Below are positions 48,236 through 57,488 of a DNA stretch of 64,000 bases, piece by piece. The translations under genes were made by a program, and so were the position numbers. The DNA is from Candidatus Peribacteraceae bacterium (lineage in GTDB: Bacteria > Patescibacteriota > Gracilibacteria > Peribacterales > Peribacteraceae). Position 1 is the first letter of the stretch, and each line of letters begins with the position of its first letter. The notes below the pieces were generated by a model. The model did no database searches, was not told the DNA's origin, and saw only the letters and a program-made list of their open reading frames with translations. The stretch covers positions 27,044 through 91,043 of the forward strand of contig JAQTSD010000002.1 of NCBI GenBank assembly GCA_028711445.1, in the 5' to 3' direction.

Positions 48236-48310
48236 GGCCCTATCGTCTAATGGTTAGGACATCAGGTTTTCAGCCTGAGAATCGGGGTTCGATTCCCCGT
48301 GGGGCTGCCA
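48236..48310 (+). tRNA. tRNA-Glu (anticodon UUC)
   Basis: Manual cloverleaf fold. Acceptor stem GGCCCTA/TGGGGCT (two G-T wobbles), D arm GTCT/GGAC, and anticodon stem TCAGG/CCTGA with loop TTTTCAG (anticodon TTC). T arm CGGGG-TTCGATT-CCCCG, with an encoded CCA. Confidence 0.9.
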
Positions 48311-48460
48311 TTCTGCGTCGCAAGCTATGCAGAATGGCAGGGGGGTGGTCTGCGAAGCTCTCTGCTTTGCGTAGCTTCGCAGCGCAAAGCGCGGAGTATG
48401 ACCTTGGAGTTGCTGGAATAAATATTCCGGTTGATCAGCTATAACGCTATAGTCTGAAGC

Positions 48461-51400
48461 ATGTCTAGTGATTTGATGGAAGATCCCATTCTAAACTCGC
48501 CCTACAATGAGCCGAGCAGACATTTTGGTGCTGACGAGAGAGGTCTGACGCAAGAAGTAGTAGAGAGTCGCCGTCCAAGTAGTTTCTACATTCCAGTCCC
48601 GAAAGCAAAGACGAAGCAGAAGCAACTCGACTTACATCTTGCCGAGGGTGCCTTCGGGAGTGAGTTGCAAAAAGAGAATGAATTTATTAACAAGGTCAGA
48701 GCGAAGATAAAGGAGTGGCGAGCGATCGGTTACTCAGGAATCACCAAGGCCTCGCGCGATCTGCTTATGTATTGGAAAGATGAATCGAGAGATAACAAAT
48801 TATTCTATTGCCAAATCGAAGCATTAGAAACATTGATGTACATCAATGAAGTCGCGGAGAAGTCTGGGGACAGTTGGATTATCAATGAACTCAAGAAAGC
48901 AAATGCAGACGCCAATCCTGGTCTGTATCGATTGGCTTTCAAAATGGCTACAGGATCGGGCAAGACTGTTGTCATGGCAATGATCATTGCCTATCACACA
49001 CTGAATAAAATCCGCTATCCGCAGGACACGCGTTTCACAGATGCATTCGTCATTGTGACGCCGGGCATCACGATTCGTGATCGTCTCAATGTTCTTCATC
49101 CAAATGATCCACAGAACTACTACCGCTTACGCAACATTGTTTCCTATCAAGACCTAGAACTCTTACAACAGGCCACGGTTCACATAACAAATTTCCATCA
49201 GCTAGAACAACGACAGAACCAACGTTTTCAGGTGGGAGGTGTATTGAAAGCCGCCAAGCTGCTTAAGGAGGAGGCAATGAAAGAAACCCCCAGTGCGATG
49301 GTGAATCGTGCATTTAAGAGTGTTCTCTCCAAATCGCGTGTGCTCGTGATAAACGATGAGGCTCATCACTGTTACCGCGAGAAACCCAGTGAACAGAAAC
49401 TCTCAGGTGAAGAGCGGAAGGAGGCTGATGAGAATAACAAGGCAGCGCGGGTCTGGATCAGTGGATTGGAAGCACTAGCGCAAAAGATCAATATCAATGC
49501 GGTTATTGATCTCTCTGCCACACCGTACTTCCTCAGTGGTTCTGGTTACGCCGAGGGCACATTATTTCCATGGACTACGTTCGATTTCTCCCTGTTGGAT
49601 GCTCTTGAATGTGGAGTTGTGAAGATCCCACGCCTTCCCATCGAATCAGACACCATCTCGATTGATGATGAGCCAGAATTTCGTAATCTGTGGCTCCACG
49701 TTCGCGATAATTTGCCAAAAAAAGGATTGAAAACTGGAAACTACGATCTCTCTGTACTTATCCTTCCAACGAAGCTACAAGAGGCATTGGAGTCCCTCTA
49801 TGGAAACTATGAGAAGTATCATCGGGAGTATGAGAAACAGAAAAAAGGAAATCCTGCGGTGATGCCACCGGTGATGATTGTCGTATGTAATAACACGACA
49901 GTCTCAGAGCTTCTGTACCGCTGGATTGCAGGATATGAGAGGGAGACTGCAAGTGGTCAGATTAAGATTGAGAAAGGTAATCTCGAAATATTCCGAAACG
50001 AAGATGGCGTTCGTTTCTTTGATCGGCCTAGCACCCTCCTCATAGATAGTGCCCAGATTGAGAGTGGAGAGAAGATTAGTGATGAATTCAAAAAGATCTT
50101 CACCAAAGAGATCGCTGATTTCCATAAGGAATACCACAAACGTTTTCCGGGTCGTGAAGATCCAACCGATGAAGAGCTCTTGCGTGAGGTGATGAATACC
50201 GTAGGTAAACCGGGGAAGCTTGGAGAAAACATCAAGTGTGTTGTTTCAGTATCCATGCTTACCGAGGGATGGGATGTGAATACTGTCACTCACGTTCTCG
50301 GCGTTCGCGCATTCTCAACACAGCTCCTTTGTGAACAGGTCGTGGGCCGCGCTTTGAGACGAGTGGATTACAGCGTTGATGACTCAACAGGGCTTCTTTC
50401 TCCTGAGTACGCAGAGGTATATGGGGTGCCATTTAGCTTCCTGAAAGCAACGGGGCCCACGCCACCACAGCCGCCGAAGGTAATCCACAGAGTACGTTCT
50501 CTTCCTGAGCGAGAGGATCAGTACCAAATTACCTTTCCACGTGTTGAAGGGTATCGATATGAACTTAACGAAACCAAGCTCTCTGCTCACTTCACCGAGG
50601 AATCAAAAACCATTATTGAGAATGAACCTACTGAAGTGACCTTAGGTGGTCTCATTGGCAAAGAGGAAAAAGAGATGCTCGAAAAAATTAAAGAGCGCCG
50701 TGAGGGAGAGGTCATCATTCGATTGGTACAGAGTCTGCTAAAACGTTATTACACAGATGCAGATGGCAGTGAAAAGTATTGGCTGACACCAAAATTGATG
50801 AAGATTACTGAGGAATATGTGAAGCACCATGTCATCCTGAAAGACCGCATGGTAATTGGTTATCTCTCCGTCGGAGCGTATTTCTCTGGTGCACTCACAA
50901 AGATTCAACAGGCTATTGTGACGGATAATTTAGAGAGCCAAAAAGACAGGAAGGTACTGCCGATTCTGGCCCCTTACGACACTCTTGGATCAACGCGTTA
51001 TGTAGATTATCTGACAACGAAAGAGGTTCGCGAAACGGTGAAGAGTCACATCAATTATGTGGTCGCTGATACGCAAGAGTGGGAGCAGGGGGTTGCGAAG
51101 AAGCTGGAACAGATGCCAGAGGTTCTAGCCTATGTAAAAAACCAGAATTTGGGCTTCACCATTCCCTATGAACATCAGGGCGCAGCTCATCAATATATTC
51201 CCGACTTCATAGCTGTCCTGAAATTGCCTGATGGAAGTAAGTTGAATTTGCTCATCGAAGTAACAGGGAAAAAAGACGACAAGAAGGCGACGAAGATCAA
51301 GACGGCCCGTGAGCTTTGGGTACCTGCGGTCAATAACAATGGGAAATTTGGAGTTTGGGCAGTGATTGAAATCCAAGACATCCATGAGACACAGAATCTC

Positions 51401-51463
51401 ATTCGTGCCGGTATGGCGAGAGGGTTTGACCATATCGTTCCCGATAGTTTGTTTACCAAATAA
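48461..51463 (+). CDS. res: type III restriction enzyme, Res subunit (SF2 helicase plus PD-ExK nuclease)
   Basis: Walker A MATGSGKTVVMA, DEAH box INDEAHHCY, motif VI QVVGRALRR, and a C-terminal nuclease core YIPDFIAV...LLIEVTGKK. Confidence 0.88.
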   Translation: MSSDLMEDPILNSPYNEPSRHFGADERGLTQEVVESRRPSSFYIPVPKAKTKQKQLDLHLAEGAFGSELQKENEFINKVRAKIKEWRAIGYSGITKASRDLLMYWKDESRDNKLFYCQIEALETLMYINEVAEKSGDSWIINELKKANADANPGLYRLAFKMATGSGKTVVMAMIIAYHTLNKIRYPQDTRFTDAFVIVTPGITIRDRLNVLHPNDPQNYYRLRNIVSYQDLELLQQATVHITNFHQLEQRQNQRFQVGGVLKAAKLLKEEAMKETPSAMVNRAFKSVLSKSRVLVINDEAHHCYREKPSEQKLSGEERKEADENNKAARVWISGLEALAQKININAVIDLSATPYFLSGSGYAEGTLFPWTTFDFSLLDALECGVVKIPRLPIESDTISIDDEPEFRNLWLHVRDNLPKKGLKTGNYDLSVLILPTKLQEALESLYGNYEKYHREYEKQKKGNPAVMPPVMIVVCNNTTVSELLYRWIAGYERETASGQIKIEKGNLEIFRNEDGVRFFDRPSTLLIDSAQIESGEKISDEFKKIFTKEIADFHKEYHKRFPGREDPTDEELLREVMNTVGKPGKLGENIKCVVSVSMLTEGWDVNTVTHVLGVRAFSTQLLCEQVVGRALRRVDYSVDDSTGLLSPEYAEVYGVPFSFLKATGPTPPQPPKVIHRVRSLPEREDQYQITFPRVEGYRYELNETKLSAHFTEESKTIIENEPTEVTLGGLIGKEEKEMLEKIKERREGEVIIRLVQSLLKRYYTDADGSEKYWLTPKLMKITEEYVKHHVILKDRMVIGYLSVGAYFSGALTKIQQAIVTDNLESQKDRKVLPILAPYDTLGSTRYVDYLTTKEVRETVKSHINYVVADTQEWEQGVAKKLEQMPEVLAYVKNQNLGFTIPYEHQGAAHQYIPDFIAVLKLPDGSKLNLLIEVTGKKDDKKATKIKTARELWVPAVNNNGKFGVWAVIEIQDIHETQNLIRAGMARGFDHIVPDSLFTK

Positions 51464-53946
51464 TGCTTATGCCAAAAAAGAAGCAATCACAGTCTACAAC
51501 TGCAGCTCCGGTAGCCTCGTACAAGCACGATGCTAAGCGGGTGCATATTCCGACACAGGAAGAATCCGTAAAGCTCTCAGCGCGTGAGAAGCAGCCAGTG
51601 AAGAAGAGGTACGACTACGATCCCTCGCTCGATCCACAGCTCATTTGGGCAGGGAAAAAGGAGCAGGGCAGCGAGTTGGCAGTATCGACAGTCCCCATCT
51701 ATGTACAAGAGAAAATTGCACCAGAAGCGATTATTGCACGTCTCAAGGCTGGTACGAGCGAAAATGCACAGATGCTCCTTTTTGGCGAAACTGCAGAGAC
51801 GCAGGTGAGCAAGGCAGTGGAATTCTATAAACATGAGGACAACTGGCAAAACCGAATGATTCTAGGAGATTCACTGCTTGTAATGAACTCCCTTCTTGAG
51901 AAAGAGGGTATGCGAGGCAGAGTCCAGACTGTCTACATAGACCCACCATACGGAATCAAATTCGGAAGTAATTGGCAGGTCTCAACTCGCAAGAGAGATG
52001 TGAAGGATAACAAATTGGATAATTTTGTGCGGCAGCCGGAGCAAGTAAAGGCGTTTCGTGATACATGGGAATTAGGTATTCATTCCTACCTCTCCTATCT
52101 ACGAGATCGCTTACTCACAGCTCGTGAACTACTAACGGATAGTGGTTCGTGTTTTGTTCAGATTAACGATGAAAATGTACATCTTGTGCGCTGTATCCTT
52201 GATGAGGTATTTGGAAGTGATAATTTCTTAAGCATTATTCATTTCAACACTACAGGAGGCTTTGCTACCAATACTCTAAGTCGAATCGGAGACTATATCC
52301 TTTGGTATGGGAAAGATGCTTCCAAAGTAAAATATCGGCCGTTATTCCTAGAAAAAATTGCTATCGAAACAGGAGATAGCCAATATCGATTCTTAGAGCT
52401 TTCTGATGGGACACGACGACCAATGACGCCAGACGAACGTAACGGAATTGAAACTTTGCCCAAAGGATCGAAAATATACCGCTATGGAGATATGTGTGGT
52501 CAAGGAGCAGCAAAAGAACCCACTCCTGTAACTTTTCGGGGAAAGATATTTTTTCCAACAGCAAACAGTCATTGGAAAGCCAATTACCCCAAAGGGGTGG
52601 AGAAGTTGATTAAAGCAAATCGGGTTGAGGCATCAGGGAATACATTGAGTTACGTCCGTTATGTTGAAGATTTTCCCGTGACACCGTATAGCAATATTTG
52701 GATGGATACAGGGACTTCTGGTTTCGCTAGTTCGAAAATATATGTCGTTCAAACAAATGTTGATGTCATTCAGCGATGTGTCTTACTTTCCACCGATCCT
52801 GGCGATATCGTTCTTGATCCAACCTGTGGTTCTGGCACCACCGCGTTCGTAGCTGAACAATGGGGAAGGCGTTGGATTACCATTGATACCTCGCGCGTTG
52901 CTTTGGCTTTGGCTAGAACACGCTTAATGACTTCTAAATTTCCATTCTACAAGCTAAAGGATGAACACTATGTAAGTGCAGGTTTTGAATATAAGACTGT
53001 TCCGCACGTGACACTGAAATCTATTGCCAATGATGAAGAGCCAGAAAAGGAAGTGCTCTTCGATCAGCCCATTGAAATAAAGGAAATTATCCGTGTTACA
53101 GGGCCATTCACTGTTGAATCACTTTCCCCACACCGCGTCTCAGATGCACAAGAGATGCTTTCAAGTGAACGATTTGTTGAGACAGTTATTTCGAACCTTC
53201 TTCAGGCAGGAGTGCAGACTGGCCAGAAGGGGGCAAGAGTGGAGTTCGTGAATCTGGATATTCTTCCTAGCGGGCCAGAAGTGCAGGCTGTTGGGGAATA
53301 TAAGACTGCTGATGGGCTCAAGAAAGTTGCTGTTTCGATCGGCCCAGAGTTTGGCAGCGTCGATGATGATTTCATTCGTGATGCGGCGAAGGTGGCAAAG
53401 AAGTTTTCAGATCTACTTATTGTCGCTGGAACATCATTCGAGGCATCAGCCTTTTCTGAGCCTTCTCAGATCGAAGGTCTGCAGGTCATGAAAGTGAAGA
53501 TCAATCCGGATCTTTCGATGGGAGATCTGCTGAAAAAGACAGGATCAGGGAATCTATTCTTGGTCTTTGGTGAGCCAGAGGTGAAGGTAAAAGAAGTTAA
53601 AGATGGGATGGTAGTGGAGATCCTTGGTGTGGATGTGTATGACCCGGTGAAGAGCGAAATACGTTCCAGTGGCTCAGGAGATCCGGAACACGACATTGCC
53701 GCTTGGTTCATAGATACGAATTACAACGGAGACGCATTCTTCGTCCATCATGCGTACTTCCTTGGTGCCGATAAGCCATACGAGAAATTGAAGAAGGCAC
53801 TCAAGGCAGAAATTGATGAGAGTGCCTGGGAAGAACTCTATTCCACTGTCTCACGTCCGTTCCCCAAGCCGAAAACAGGGAAAATTGCGATCAAGGTTAT
53901 TAATCACTATGGAGACGAAGTCATGAGAGTATTTCAGGTAGATTAG
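51463..53946 (+). CDS. mod: type III (beta-class) DNA methyltransferase, Mod subunit, N6-adenine/N4-cytosine type
   Basis: Motif IV VYIDPPYGIKF precedes motif I VLDPTCGSGTTAFVAEQWGRRWITID. The ATG overlaps the res TAA by 1 nt. Confidence 0.9.
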   Translation: MLMPKKKQSQSTTAAPVASYKHDAKRVHIPTQEESVKLSAREKQPVKKRYDYDPSLDPQLIWAGKKEQGSELAVSTVPIYVQEKIAPEAIIARLKAGTSENAQMLLFGETAETQVSKAVEFYKHEDNWQNRMILGDSLLVMNSLLEKEGMRGRVQTVYIDPPYGIKFGSNWQVSTRKRDVKDNKLDNFVRQPEQVKAFRDTWELGIHSYLSYLRDRLLTARELLTDSGSCFVQINDENVHLVRCILDEVFGSDNFLSIIHFNTTGGFATNTLSRIGDYILWYGKDASKVKYRPLFLEKIAIETGDSQYRFLELSDGTRRPMTPDERNGIETLPKGSKIYRYGDMCGQGAAKEPTPVTFRGKIFFPTANSHWKANYPKGVEKLIKANRVEASGNTLSYVRYVEDFPVTPYSNIWMDTGTSGFASSKIYVVQTNVDVIQRCVLLSTDPGDIVLDPTCGSGTTAFVAEQWGRRWITIDTSRVALALARTRLMTSKFPFYKLKDEHYVSAGFEYKTVPHVTLKSIANDEEPEKEVLFDQPIEIKEIIRVTGPFTVESLSPHRVSDAQEMLSSERFVETVISNLLQAGVQTGQKGARVEFVNLDILPSGPEVQAVGEYKTADGLKKVAVSIGPEFGSVDDDFIRDAAKVAKKFSDLLIVAGTSFEASAFSEPSQIEGLQVMKVKINPDLSMGDLLKKTGSGNLFLVFGEPEVKVKEVKDGMVVEILGVDVYDPVKSEIRSSGSGDPEHDIAAWFIDTNYNGDAFFVHHAYFLGADKPYEKLKKALKAEIDESAWEELYSTVSRPFPKPKTGKIAIKVINHYGDEVMRVFQVD

Positions 53947-53982
53947 TACCCAACTTCTTTATCATATTATGAAACCAAAAAT

Positions 53983-54540
53983 ATGAAAGCTAATCCCTCC
54001 GAGCAGCCATCCATTCATCTCTGTAAACAATGTGGCAGAATTCCTAAAACAAATGAGGATCCCACATTTGTTAACTATAGCTGGAAAGTCTGGGATAAGT
54101 CTCGGGATCGAGGAAGAATCTGCGAATGCGAACACTGTGAACAGCGATTCTTGGAATACGATATTTCAGCAGACTTCTACGGTCCAAAGGCATTTGAAGT
54201 GAGCATAGAAGGTACTGATTGGATTCCCATTACAAAGCAGGAAGTGGATATCCTCAGATCGAACGATGCGGGATGGTGGTACATTAAAAAACTCGTAACT
54301 ACCAGAAGTCATCTCTATAGAGAAAATGGTCGGTATTTTTGGCACAAACTAAAAAAACAAACAAAAGCGAAGGATTTAGCTGATAGCATGCTACGTGCTC
54401 TGAAAGAAGTTAACGAACGATCTATGCGAAAGGGTGGGGGTTGGGTACCACAGTGGGATGAAATGAACGGGAATGAACGTAGGGAATATCTGAAGTTTCT
54501 TGAAGAAAAAACTCGTCATTCCTCAGACAGAGAAGAATGA
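53983..54540 (+). CDS. hypothetical Zn-ribbon protein
   Basis: 185 aa. CKQCG...CECEHC provides four Cys ligands. Basic C-terminal half. Lies in the low-GC island. Confidence 0.5.
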   Translation: MKANPSEQPSIHLCKQCGRIPKTNEDPTFVNYSWKVWDKSRDRGRICECEHCEQRFLEYDISADFYGPKAFEVSIEGTDWIPITKQEVDILRSNDAGWWYIKKLVTTRSHLYRENGRYFWHKLKKQTKAKDLADSMLRALKEVNERSMRKGGGWVPQWDEMNGNERREYLKFLEEKTRHSSDREE

Positions 54541-57018
54541 TTTTTTAACTAGATTCATATTATATCCGCCGCAGTCACATTTAATGCTCGTTGGCATTCC
54601 CTCCTTGTCATTTATCACTTTCAAGAGAGAGCCACATTTAGGATTACTGCATCGGAAAATATCGAATAACTCCTTGTATGCTTCAATGACAGGTTCGAAG
54701 TCTTGTTTCTCAAGTTGGTGCCATTCGTTGAAATGCACGACTGAATTCACAGCCCAACCCTCGCTTCTCGTTCGTTGCATTATTTCCTTTACCACACTTT
54801 CCCATTCTTTGATTTTATCTACTGCATCCTGTTTGTTCCATGAATTTGCTGACTCCTTTGCTTTTGCAAGAATAGAAAGATACGAGCTTATACTGGCTGG
54901 AAGGAAATCGCCGAGATCCCATCTACTGTTCATGTGGTAGGTAACTTTTGCCTGAAGCGCATCACAGACCTCCCTAAAGAATTCTTCTGCTCCACGGCGC
55001 AGTTTGTGTGCAGCGCTTGGTATGTCGTTTTTCTGCAAGTCGGAAGTAATGCGTTCCCAAAGATCAGTTTGAGTATTGACTTGCGGCCCTGAATTAACAT
55101 TCCAGTTATAGAATTCAACAAGTCTCGAAGATTTAATTACACCCTCACTTTTCAATTGATTTGCCCATGTCCTATCATGAGTGGTAATTAAAAATTGCCG
55201 ATGTGGGAATTGTTTCTTTAACAACAAACACAGCTGCTTTCTATGTTCGGAATCCACAGACATTACGACATCGTCCAGAATAATGAGATCTAGGATTCCT
55301 TTGGTCAGATAGTCGCTCAATGCAAGGAACAGACATAGTCCCATACTGTCTTGGTGCCCCTCGCTGTGTAAGGCATGCGGGGGGTGGCATCCTCTTCCGT
55401 AGAAATCGACTTCAAAATCAAGGCCAGCTCCTGATGGCTCAATAACTGCCAAGAAGTTTTCCTCGTCAGAACCGTGTAATTCTTTGTAGAGGGCAACGAA
55501 TCGATCTCGAATTGCCTCGTAGAGTGATGCAAGTACTTCATCTCTAGCCTGCTCAAAGGCACTTAAAAGCATTTCCGCCTTTGACAGTGCTGATTCAAAT
55601 TTCATTAGATCCTTCTTGGCCGTTTCATACATCTTCAAATTTTCCTCGAGTCTTATGAGAGTATCCAAAGCAGTTCGTTGAGGTGAAACTGTCTTTCGTA
55701 TTTTTGCCTCGGTCAGTACCTCAGACATCGTCTCCGCTCTGGAGCTGGGAGCAAATAATCCTGCAACATCTTCAGATGATTGTTGCGCCACCGGGTAGCC
55801 CTCGACAGCAGCATCAACTTCAAAGAGTAAAACCATTTTTTCAAGTTTTTTTAACCATTCGTCAAACGCATCCTTCGCTTTTTCCAAGTCCAATTGTTGC
55901 GCGGCAGTTCGGATGTTCTTTATGAAAGCGATTGCCTCACTGTAGTGTTTCTTCATCTTCTGAGCTTCTGAAGTAATTGTATCCACCTGGCCTGCTGCCT
56001 TTTTCGCCTCCTCGCTTCGCCTTTCGAGATGTGATTGTAGCTTTGCTGCATCCCATTGAGTATCACAGAGAGGGCATTTTCCCGAATCATCCAGAAGTTC
56101 AATTCCTCTCGATATCAGCGAGGAGTGCTTATGAGCACGAAGTAGTTCAGAGTTAGACCTAATATCGTTAAGTGCTTTTCGTAAAGCTGTTTCTGCCTTG
56201 AGGAGGCTTGCGGTATGTTCATTCCCAAGAAGTTTATTGAGACCCTCAATGTCCTTTTCTAAGAGGGCGGGGTTGGGATTCTTGGCGTTGTCTTTTTTCT
56301 CCTCTTCAACCCCTTTTAACTGCGACTTAATTTTGGTCGAATGCAGCTCAGTGATCGGCTCCCCACCAAGAATCTTACGATGACGATTAACTTCGGCAAG
56401 GATCGCTTCTTTGTCGTCTTTCTGGAGGCCGGCATTCGTTCGTATGCTGGTCAAACACTTCTCCACGGACTGCACTGCAGATTTATGAGCAGCACTTGCC
56501 TTGTTCTTTGCACTCACAATCGCTTGTCTGGCCTCTTCGATATCTGAAATGTTCAGTAGTTCTTGAATTTCCTCAGCGCGCTTTTTTGACTCCGAATGAA
56601 CGTACTTCAGTATTTCTCTACGGGTGAGCACATGCTGGCCTCTTTGTGCAAACAAAATAACCGGTTCCATTGCTCTAATCACATCTTTCGACGCAATAAG
56701 AGTGTCCGGTTCTTTCATGCATCTACTGATTTCTACTGGCTGATCAAAAGCTTCTAACTTGATCTTTGCAGTCACGACTACCTCCTCTGGGCTTTCGGCC
56801 GCATCTATATGCGGGCCATGTTTCTTGACTGAGATGCCCCGTGTACCCACTCCGCACAAGCGGGCAATTTTTCCAGTAAGAAGAAAATCGATTGCATCAA
56901 CCACGGCGCTTTTCCCAGATCCATTCGGTCCTGCAATAGCAAAGTTATCTCCTCCGACTTCAAAGGAAGCCTGACGAATGCCCCGAATATCTTTGATGTT
57001 AATACTAATAATCCTCAT
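54523..57018 (-). CDS. SMC/Rad50-like ABC ATPase with CxxC zinc hook and C-terminal Zn-ribbon domain (RloC/AAA_13-like?)
   Basis: Walker A AGPNGSGKSAVVDA. Long coiled-coil interrupted by GKCPLCDTQW (nt ~56065-56076). Signature/Walker B HSEGHQDSMGLCLFLAL...LIILDDVVMSVD and D-loop/H-loop ITTHDR. ~210-aa C-terminal extension ending CSNPKCGS...CDCGG. Confidence 0.8.
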   Translation of the reverse strand: MRIISINIKDIRGIRQASFEVGGDNFAIAGPNGSGKSAVVDAIDFLLTGKIARLCGVGTRGISVKKHGPHIDAAESPEEVVVTAKIKLEAFDQPVEISRCMKEPDTLIASKDVIRAMEPVILFAQRGQHVLTRREILKYVHSESKKRAEEIQELLNISDIEEARQAIVSAKNKASAAHKSAVQSVEKCLTSIRTNAGLQKDDKEAILAEVNRHRKILGGEPITELHSTKIKSQLKGVEEEKKDNAKNPNPALLEKDIEGLNKLLGNEHTASLLKAETALRKALNDIRSNSELLRAHKHSSLISRGIELLDDSGKCPLCDTQWDAAKLQSHLERRSEEAKKAAGQVDTITSEAQKMKKHYSEAIAFIKNIRTAAQQLDLEKAKDAFDEWLKKLEKMVLLFEVDAAVEGYPVAQQSSEDVAGLFAPSSRAETMSEVLTEAKIRKTVSPQRTALDTLIRLEENLKMYETAKKDLMKFESALSKAEMLLSAFEQARDEVLASLYEAIRDRFVALYKELHGSDEENFLAVIEPSGAGLDFEVDFYGRGCHPPHALHSEGHQDSMGLCLFLALSDYLTKGILDLIILDDVVMSVDSEHRKQLCLLLKKQFPHRQFLITTHDRTWANQLKSEGVIKSSRLVEFYNWNVNSGPQVNTQTDLWERITSDLQKNDIPSAAHKLRRGAEEFFREVCDALQAKVTYHMNSRWDLGDFLPASISSYLSILAKAKESANSWNKQDAVDKIKEWESVVKEIMQRTRSEGWAVNSVVHFNEWHQLEKQDFEPVIEAYKELFDIFRCSNPKCGSLLKVINDKEGMPTSIKCDCGGYNMNLVKKSFFSV

Positions 57019-57208
57019 TGGTTCTTAGTGAAGAAAGGATATTCACTAACTTTTCAGCATCTTTATTCTCCGAGACTAACCATGCCTTTATTTCTTCAGC
57101 GCAAGCCTTCAATTCATCCTTTGTAGTCAGTTTTACGATCAGTTTTTCGACAATCTTCTCGTAGAGAGATTTTGGTATTACCCCAGTTATCTTTGGAGCT
57201 TCTGGCAT
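57005..57208 (-). CDS. hypothetical small protein upstream of the ATPase
   Basis: 67-aa helical ORF that overlaps the ATPase start by 14 nt, consistent with translational coupling. Confidence 0.4.
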   Translation of the reverse strand: MPEAPKITGVIPKSLYEKIVEKLIVKLTTKDELKACAEEIKAWLVSENKDAEKLVNILSSLRTNEDY

Positions 57209-57488
57209 GTTGAAGATTCTGGCCCACCCTTCCCCTCTATGTAAAGAACAACATACTCCGTTATTGCATACGAATCTTCTGATCTTTTAGCTCCAACTAC
57301 TCTTCAAATTGTCGAATATTTGACGTTTTTCCTCAGTTGAGCCGTTCTTCAAAAATATTTCACATACTTCCGCTGATTAATCTTCCGCGCCTTCTGCCTG
57401 TCACTGATCCCCAGCACATCGCTTGCGAAGCATGAGAACCGCTCGAACTCGTCGTCGATATTCCTCTTCACTGCCGACAGTTGGGCCT

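Follow-up and report, generated by a model that had tools for sequence, protein, structure and literature searches.

A 64,000-nucleotide (nt) stretch of DNA from a Candidatus Peribacteraceae bacterium (GenBank assembly GCA_028711445.1, contig JAQTSD010000002.1, positions 27,044 to 91,043 of the forward strand; hereafter the window) raises the question of what role is played by a compact two-gene unit on its minus strand, next to a type III-like restriction-modification (R-M) system. The unit, here called the cassette, consists of a small partner gene (P0002, 67 residues, 57005-57208), recognised as an open reading frame (ORF) with its translation, and a gene for a zinc-hook Rad50/SMC-type ABC ATPase with a fused C-terminal domain, the tail (P0001, 831 residues, 54523-57018); the two ORFs overlap by 14 nt at the ATPase start codon. 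An earlier note, made from the sequence alone, had taken the pair for a restriction-linked defence or anticodon-nuclease-like system. The analysis reported here indicates that the cassette is probably a defence or conflict module, and that the pair moves between distant bacteria and archaea, often among defence genes.

The motifs of P0001 were verified codon by codon, and an AlphaFold2 (AF2) model was built on 115 homologues, giving a predicted local distance difference test (pLDDT) score of 84.5. As delimited by the model and the motifs, the N-terminal lobe of the ATPase head (residues 1-155, 56554-57018; all cassette features are on the minus strand) contains the Walker A motif G30-PNGSGK36-S37 (nt 56908-56931), and G30, N32-S37, D41 and D44 are invariant among the 115 homologues. 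Q128 was also among the ABC-ATPase motifs confirmed. The lobe is followed by antiparallel coiled-coil arms (residues 159-308 and 326-519, 55462-56544), modelled as long helices flanking a short beta-bridge at the zinc hook C315-P-L-C318 (CPLC, nt 56065-56076), which joins the arms; C315, P316, L317, C318 and W322 are invariant in the homologues. The C-terminal head lobe (residues 524-662, 55033-55449) supplies the signature S552-E-G (nt 55357-55365), the Walker B motif LIILDD (L578-IILD582-D583, of the form hhhhDD; nt 55270-55287), the D-loop D589 and the H-loop H614 (nt 55177-55179). P0001 is a Rad50/SbcC-type ABC ATPase with the full catalytic motif set and a zinc hook at the tip of its antiparallel coiled coil. 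The two ORFs, the Walker A motif, the hook and the Walker B/D-loop region all lie where the earlier note had placed them; a coiled coil broken by the hook is likewise present, with a length of about 360 residues in the AF2 model rather than the proposed 400 or so.

A Foldseek search with the P0001 model returned Rad50 (7zr1, E 9e-11) first, followed by SMC/cohesin heads and SbcC (7yzp), with the Lamassu ATPase LmuB (9hqx) at rank 27, and sequence searches of the PDB placed archaeal Rad50 first. Pfam SMC_N scored 61.8 bits. The strongest curated hidden Markov model (HMM) was PADLOC LmuB PDLC03859 (93 bits, E 5.3e-27), which aligned residues 1-623 with profile positions 3-593 of 611. The best NCBIfam match, RecF, reached 41 bits where 172 are required; the Rad50 models reached at most 25 bits against cut-offs of at least 700, and SMC was far below its cut-off. 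For comparison with RloC, a genuine RloC from a carrier genome and a 30-sequence alignment of proteins named 'wobble nucleotide-excising tRNase' were used as references. Profile-profile alignment (hhalign) of the cassette ATPase with RloC from the hook to the H-loop gave a probability of 94.9% (E 4.6e-8) and paired CPLC with CGFC, SEG with SEG and DD with DD, so the sensor part of the cassette ATPase is homologous to that of RloC. Motifs, fold, hhalign and the LmuB HMM thus agree with the Rad50/RloC/Lamassu-like architecture first proposed.

The ATPase is followed by a distinct C-terminal domain, as had been noted, with a size of about 170 residues (663-831) instead of the suggested 210, because residues 628-662 are still part of the ABC head. 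The domain begins with a predicted four-helix bundle, the putative effector (residues 663-788, 54655-55032), for which a separate AF2 domain model gave a pLDDT of 86 and a predicted template modelling score (pTM) of 0.81; the full-length model placed the tail helices at residues 666-787 and the ribbon strands at residues 800-822, and the tail-only model agreed. It ends with a zinc ribbon (residues 789-823, C790/C795/C814/C816, 54550-54654) of three short strands in both AF2 models, for which weak matches to Zn_ribbon_5 and IBR were found in Pfam and a weak match to a phage CxxC protein in BFVD. Among 74 species-level homologues, there is no variation at W639, G644, R674 (nt 54997-54999), E678 (nt 54985-54987), H762 (nt 54733-54735), C790, C795 or C814, and C816 shows conservation of at least 90%. 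A second motif, R749-x3-E753, lies eight residues upstream of H762. In a search of 1.84 billion proteins, the tail domain was confined to the architecture of about 820 residues among the best 150 of 1040 representative matches. On the strength of its invariant residues and its restriction to one architecture, the tail looks functional. Searched alone, it had no significant match in Pfam, PADLOC or NCBIfam, and a profile search of the PDB returned nothing below E 0.6.

P0002 is a helical, acidic protein with an isoelectric point (pI) of 5.4 (family median 4.8). The claim that it has no known counterpart was not supported, as a small gene stands directly upstream of the ATPase gene in essentially every family locus. 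An automatic scan detected a homologous same-strand ORF of about 60-70 residues, ending at or overlapping the ATPase start, at 68 of 79 loci, and where the scan had missed it the small protein was visible by eye in the upstream translation in nine of ten loci inspected. The commonest overlap between the small ORF and the ATPase gene is a 4-nt ATGA. The small proteins align as one family with the consensus xKSLxEQIxDEMFxxLExxxEFDxxTIxxLKxLxxxGxL, and P0002 is a divergent yet genuine member: an HMM built with P0002 left out scored it at 20.4 bits, and none of 1000 shuffles exceeded 10.5 bits. These small, acidic, helical proteins are constant partners of the ATPase, to which they are translationally coupled. 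The abundance of homologues, the invariant residues and the small-protein HMM score together mean that these features are not due to chance.

Scanning of every small protein against Pfam, together with PADLOC, gave no family match and no helix-turn-helix (HTH) or SbcD_C signal; the one recurrent Pfam match was FliG_N, in 4 of 44 members and at E > 0.007. Away from the cassette, the small-protein profile recovered only 37 orphan proteins of about 60-70 residues. A C-terminal ...NE(D/T)... tail recurs in the small ORF where the overlap is 14-29 nt (loci L004, L006-L008, L013, L044, L046, L050 and L065, and nt 57005-57018 of the window). This stretch is the conserved ATPase N-terminus (MRLLELEI) read in the +1/+2 frame, and its conservation is therefore a consequence of the overlap rather than a property of the small protein. 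A promoter-like TTTACA-18-CAGAAT (57245-57216) lies just upstream of the small ORF; such elements occur at chance level in the scan.

Homologues of P0001 are abundant. Full-length homologues at 37-50% identity were readily found, and the protein collection holds more than 850 full-length relatives of about 820 residues with 44-50% identity, the few named ones bearing labels such as 'AAA family ATPase', 'SbcCD ATPase subunit' and 'RecF'. In a set with one genome per species, ATPase relatives were present in 391 of 185,579 genomes, spanning more than 20 phyla and including many archaea. Eighty loci were fetched for neighbourhood analysis, about 22 of them archaeal and the others from about 18 bacterial phyla; the archaeal carriers belong to Methanobacteriaceae, Methanomicrobiales, Methanophagales, Halobacteriota, Thermoplasmatota, Bathyarchaeia and Promethearchaeota. 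Among 61 genomes of the same family or class as the source organism, the source genome alone carries the ATPase gene. In a maximum-likelihood tree, phyla and domains are intermixed: Bathyarchaeia is nested, with 100% support, in a clade of Planctomycetota/Omnitrophota, one sequence from Methanophagales and one from Dehalococcoidaceae are sisters, and three Bacteroidota sequences lie within a Methanobacteriota clade. P0001 itself sits on a long branch with no close relative.

In the window, the cassette is carried by a low-GC accessory island (48311-57300, without assigned strand), recognised from the GC (guanine plus cytosine) profile and from a tRNA gene at its edge. The GC fraction is 0.42-0.48 within the island and 0.52-0.62 outside. 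The low-GC stretch starts directly after tRNA-Glu (48236-48310), which marks its left edge, and the cassette forms its other end. The patchy distribution, the low-GC island at a tRNA gene, the mixed tree and an insertion sequence (IS)-disrupted copy show that the cassette is horizontally acquired and mobile. A search for att-like flanking direct repeats at the island borders found none, and no integrase was found. Two damaged relatives were seen. In locus L088 (6188-10750), a metagenome contig, the ATPase gene is broken after 64 codons by transposase genes (DUF4277, IstB_IS21 and Mu-transposase C), and in locus L087 (6188-7759) the ATPase is shortened to 523 residues, in a record (GCA_900198705.1) that is a 23-Mb 'contig' and looks like a concatenated assembly. 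Decayed copies of the gene therefore exist.

Candidate third genes were sought by all-against-all clustering of 1642 ORFs from 81 sequences (the 80 loci and the window), and by Pfam and PADLOC tallies of the 130 nearest neighbours. ORF clustering revealed no conserved third gene, and no Pfam family occurred in more than three of the 130 neighbours; in the absence of a further conserved neighbour, the cassette is a self-contained two-gene unit. The same clustering and tallies gave no Mre11/SbcD or JetD nuclease partner nearby. Defence genes recur in the surroundings. In four related metagenome contigs (L086, L088, L090 and L091, in one of which the ATPase is split by an IS), Thoeris-like TIR and SIR2 genes lie immediately upstream; a DrmC-like PLD protein is found in L038 and a HEC-05 protein in L069, and the PADLOC tally includes matches to mad2 (four proteins), HmaC, PglX and DUF499. 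The neighbour pattern is what one would expect of a mobile defence gene inserting into variable regions, and not of an R-M partner.

Two further features of these neighbourhoods were recorded. In the near-identical contigs L086, L090 and L091 (3240-5617), the proteins directly upstream of the cassette are ThsB_TIR and SIR2_2, with a 155-residue ORF between them, and a conserved 300-residue ORF without Pfam match lies directly downstream. Three nearest-neighbour proteins among loci L001-L080, which were not among ten candidates scanned individually, match PADLOC LmuB PDLC03859 (best E 8.9e-76) and mad3; they may be real Lamassu- or MADS-like genes beside some cassettes, or the LmuB model may be generic.

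Taken together, we lean slightly towards reading the cassette as a conflict module for defence or abortive infection, complete in itself, spread by horizontal transfer and belonging to an unnamed family, with a fused RNase-like tail under a DNA-sensing ATPase; it would serve as a suicide switch against phages or plasmids. Pfam, PADLOC and NCBIfam name neither the tail nor the small protein, and the pair corresponds to no system already named there; the known kind around it is that of SbcC-derived immune ATPases with a controlled effector. Text searches of the literature returned no paper describing the cassette family, its tail or its partner, and an earlier in-silico mention is possible. In the mechanism we propose, two ATPase chains would dimerise via the zinc hook and survey DNA as Rad50/SbcC, LmuB and RloC do. 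An invader-type DNA signal (free ends, replication intermediates or damage), combined with ATP binding and hydrolysis, would alter the engagement of the heads, and this in turn would release or juxtapose the two fused tails. On the model of the Arg-Glu-His site in RloC and PrrC, Arg674, Glu678 and His762 may form a metal-independent nuclease, for which RNA or tRNA would be the likeliest substrate; cleavage, most likely of RNA or else of DNA, would stop translation and halt the invader at the cell's cost. The zinc ribbon may aid nucleic-acid binding or pairing of the tails. The small gene occupies the position, just before the ATPase gene, at which LmuC and the SbcD C-terminal domain are encoded.

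The assignment of the tail as an RNase effector, which is made by analogy, is plausible and held with somewhat less than even confidence. The HEPN superfamily is characterised by a four-helix up-down bundle, with R-x4-6-H at helix 4 preceded by an acidic residue (PMC3710099). The tail has the four-helix bundle, Glu678 on helix 1 and, in the model, H762 in a flexible loop just before helix 4, a HEPN-like position; R-x4-6-H is absent, the nearest Arg being R749, 12 residues before the His. Support for a HEPN label goes no further than the topology of the fold. Several observations weigh against the proposed reading. Alignment of the tail profile with the RloC tail by hhalign gave a probability of 0.9%. 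Foldseek searches of the tail against PDB and BFVD gave no match at E <=0.001 (best E 0.7 and 0.1, respectively), with designed helical bundles on top, and the one HEPN structure in the list was 2q00 (PaREP1; probability 0.23, E 0.95). The tail has no detectable relation to the RloC nuclease domain or to any solved or viral predicted structure, so the RNase assignment draws on three conserved residues and on analogy. Moreover, R674 and E678 are modelled in the lower half of helix 1 and H762 at the start of helix 4, and they may not make one site per monomer; the tail is also mildly acidic (median pI 5.6), a property uncommon among enzymes that act on nucleic acids. The majority of cassette neighbours are ordinary, non-defence genes. 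Finally, the part given to the small acidic protein, which would bind the ATPase and either hold it off or tune its DNA recognition, is conjecture throughout.

A bolder form of the conflict-module reading is tentative and on balance doubtful. It holds that the cassette is an undescribed bacterial and archaeal immune system in which a Rad50-like zinc-hook DNA sensor bears a cis-fused nuclease of new fold, an Arg-Glu-His four-helix bundle plus zinc ribbon unrelated to HEPN, and that the acidic partner of 60-70 residues restrains it, either by mimicking DNA or in the way of an SbcD-tail-like latch. If true, it would represent an independent third route, beside RloC and Lamassu, from the SbcCD repair machine to a suicide switch.

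The alternative that survives best, though it is unlikely, is a compact Lamassu. In this reading, the ATPase corresponds to a long-type LmuB and the small protein to a reduced LmuC, with the tail taking the place of LmuA, either as a cis-acting effector such as a DNase or as a scaffold like the LmuA C-terminal domain that recruits an effector in trans. Long-type Lamassu has an hhhhDD Walker B motif, one CxxC only and a short gene placed right before that of the ATPase; this short gene derives from the SbcD C-terminal domain, and Lamassu clades with lost components have been reported (PMC12663957). The cassette resembles long-type Lamassu (LmuC-LmuB-LmuA) in its CxxC-SMC ATPase with hhhhDD and a single hook, in the small gene before the ATPase gene and in its defence-island contexts. 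With its PDLC03859 match and its motifs, P0001 qualifies as an LmuB-type ATPase, with the reservation that PDLC03859 may be somewhat generic; PADLOC LmuB is its top curated HMM, and LmuB 9hqx is in the structural match list, albeit 27th, behind Rad50 and SMC proteins. In contrast to Lamassu, the cassette has no gene for LmuA, in which an effector domain is joined to the LmuA C-terminal domain, its candidate effector being fused to the ATPase C-terminus, and its small protein is, at 60-70 residues, much shorter than LmuC and without LmuC, HTH or SbcD_C signal. Neither the tail nor the small protein matches PADLOC LmuA or LmuC, and no LmuA or LmuC chain is among the 50 listed Foldseek PDB matches for the tail. 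A Lamassu with LmuA was rejected, as the cassette loci have no conserved third gene and the tail has no PADLOC match; the Lamassu link drawn by the earlier note does not extend to membership.

We consider it improbable that the tail is non-enzymatic and the cassette an SMC-like DNA clamp or tether, acting against plasmids in the manner of Wadjet or serving the maintenance of mobile elements, with a four-helix and zinc-ribbon tail that would bind DNA or a partner and with R674, E678 and H762 in structural or interface roles. No nuclease fold was matched, and the helix order may keep R674/E678 and H762 apart in the monomer; zinc ribbons, moreover, often bind nucleic acid or mediate protein contacts. 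Against this, that precisely Arg, Glu and His are strictly invariant in bacterial and archaeal members alike is a pattern more characteristic of catalysis, and no JetD-like nuclease is encoded nearby.

The R-M system next to the cassette suggests another role, that of an R-M accessory on the model of PrrC-EcoprrI or of MADS, in which the R-M enzymes would silence an ATPase-nuclease that phage anti-restriction then releases. The island runs from tRNA-Glu through a type III-like res gene (48461-51463, plus strand; NCBIfam BPTD_3080 family restriction endonuclease, 1108 bits), a mod gene for a type III-like methyltransferase (51463-53946, plus strand; PADLOC MTase_III, 754 bits) and an orphan ORF, P0003, to the cassette on the minus strand. 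The cassette thus abuts res-mod in one low-GC island. Elsewhere, locus L019 has a type III methyltransferase directly downstream of the cassette, L049 has a methyltransferase nearby, and L028 encodes a BPTD_3080 endonuclease, 54% identical, about 8 kb from the cassette. PADLOC mad3 also matches P0001 (E 4e-18), on generic ATPase parts only, and NCBIfam MAD3 (NF047739), whose ATPase belongs to a mad1-8 gene set, scores 13.4 bits against a cut-off of 420. Set against the proximity in the window, R-M genes adjoin the cassette in only a few of the 80 loci, no neighbour family exceeds three of 130, and transcription of the cassette converges with that of res and mod. The rarity of R-M genes beside the cassette means that the link in the window is one of defence-island co-location, and the 'restriction-linked' paradigm invoked at the outset does not hold. 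We infer that the type III R-M genes form a defence set of their own, which shares the island with the cassette without being its functional partner; the accessory role is quite improbable.

PrrC likewise joins an ABC ATPase that exerts control to a C-terminal Arg-Glu-His nuclease domain, and the cassette in the window, too, adjoins an R-M system; PrrC differs in having no coiled coil or hook, and R-M linkage is rare in the cassette family. To our knowledge, PrrC always lies within a type I R-M locus, which silences it.

That P0001 is a true RloC/PrrC-family anticodon nuclease, an orthologue with a diverged HEPN domain, is very improbable. The resemblance is extensive: both are single polypeptides of about 800 residues with the same domain order, an ABC ATPase split by a coiled coil that bears one CxxC hook, SEG and an hhhhDD Walker B, homologous hook and head, and a C-terminal helical domain with an R-x3-E...H pattern. 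Both are patchily distributed with sporadic R-M linkage, which for RloC was found at 8 of 72 loci (PMC2610378). The genuine RloC scored 546.8 bits against AAA_13 (positions 6-713) and contains CGFC hook, YIDD, STHN and LRKFLE...EYSH motifs, whereas P0001 had no AAA_13 match at E <=0.1, and four homologues scored 24.7-33.1 bits, below the 36-bit gathering threshold and over profile positions 20-580 of 713 at most, the nuclease part of AAA_13 being about positions 580-713.

The tails also differ in their motifs. The RloC anticodon nuclease (HEPN) domain carries Arg-X3-Glu-X36-52-His, often with Ser before the His (PMC2610378); the genuine RloC has R713-x3-E717-x42-H760, R753-x6-H760 and S759 before the His, whereas the cassette tail has R674-x3-E678-x83-H762 with Val before the His, so that the Glu-to-His spacing is 83 as against 36-52 and the Ser-His and R-x6-H motifs are missing. 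The R-x3-E...H residues pointed out in the earlier note are the most conserved of the tail, but the homology to the PrrC/RloC nuclease that they had suggested is not borne out by hhalign or by the spacing. The cassette family further adds the zinc ribbon, correctly identified at the outset as a feature that RloC lacks, an obligatory small upstream gene and many archaeal members. Membership of P0001 in the RloC family was rejected, as the heads are homologous, the tails are not detectably so, and AAA_13 remains below threshold. In G001, a Pseudomonadota metagenome-assembled genome, a cassette-family member (L050 698-3172) and a true RloC (L081 1303-3738; 547 bits) occur in the same genome; the two are distinct, co-existing systems there.

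Similarity to Rad50-Mre11/SbcCD lies in the best structural and PDB sequence matches (7zr1, 9bi4, 7yzp and 3aux) and in the zinc-hook coiled-coil architecture, whereas the cassette has no Mre11/SbcD gene, shorter arms, an added tail and an accessory, transferred rather than core distribution. A housekeeping SbcC/Rad50/RecN-type repair ATPase, to which the Rad50 fold and motifs might point, can be dismissed, being already contradicted by absence of the gene from 60 of 61 related genomes, the low-GC island, the missing Mre11/SbcD partner, NCBIfam Rad50, RecF and SMC scores far below cut-off, inter-domain transfer in the tree and the IS-disrupted copy.

Immune sensors derived from SMC/Rad50, among them Lamassu, Wadjet and RloC, are DNA-repair machines turned into detectors of foreign DNA and a current research focus. 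To these the cassette family contributes a compact form with only two genes, which extends over more than 20 phyla and reaches several archaeal lineages where few defence systems of this kind have been investigated (Methanobacteriota, Halobacteriota, Thermoplasmatota, Bathyarchaeia and Asgard). Neither its putative effector domain nor its tiny partner has a counterpart in Pfam, PADLOC, NCBIfam, PDB or BFVD, and their characterisation could bring to light a nuclease fold not seen before and a new gating of a Rad50-like sensor. In the window, a bacterium of the candidate phyla radiation keeps a 9-kb defence island that combines type III R-M with the cassette.

Between mod and the cassette, P0003 (53983-54540, plus strand) encodes a Cys-rich protein of 185 residues. 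It had no match in Pfam, PADLOC or NCBIfam and no homologue among the 80 related loci. Two CxxC pairs lie close to its N-terminus, and its 3' end is convergent with that of the ATPase gene, overlapping it by 18 nt. A terminator-like hairpin with a T-run (54516-54540, minus strand), of a kind found at chance level in the scan, is located exactly at the ATPase stop codon and within the last codons of the convergent P0003.

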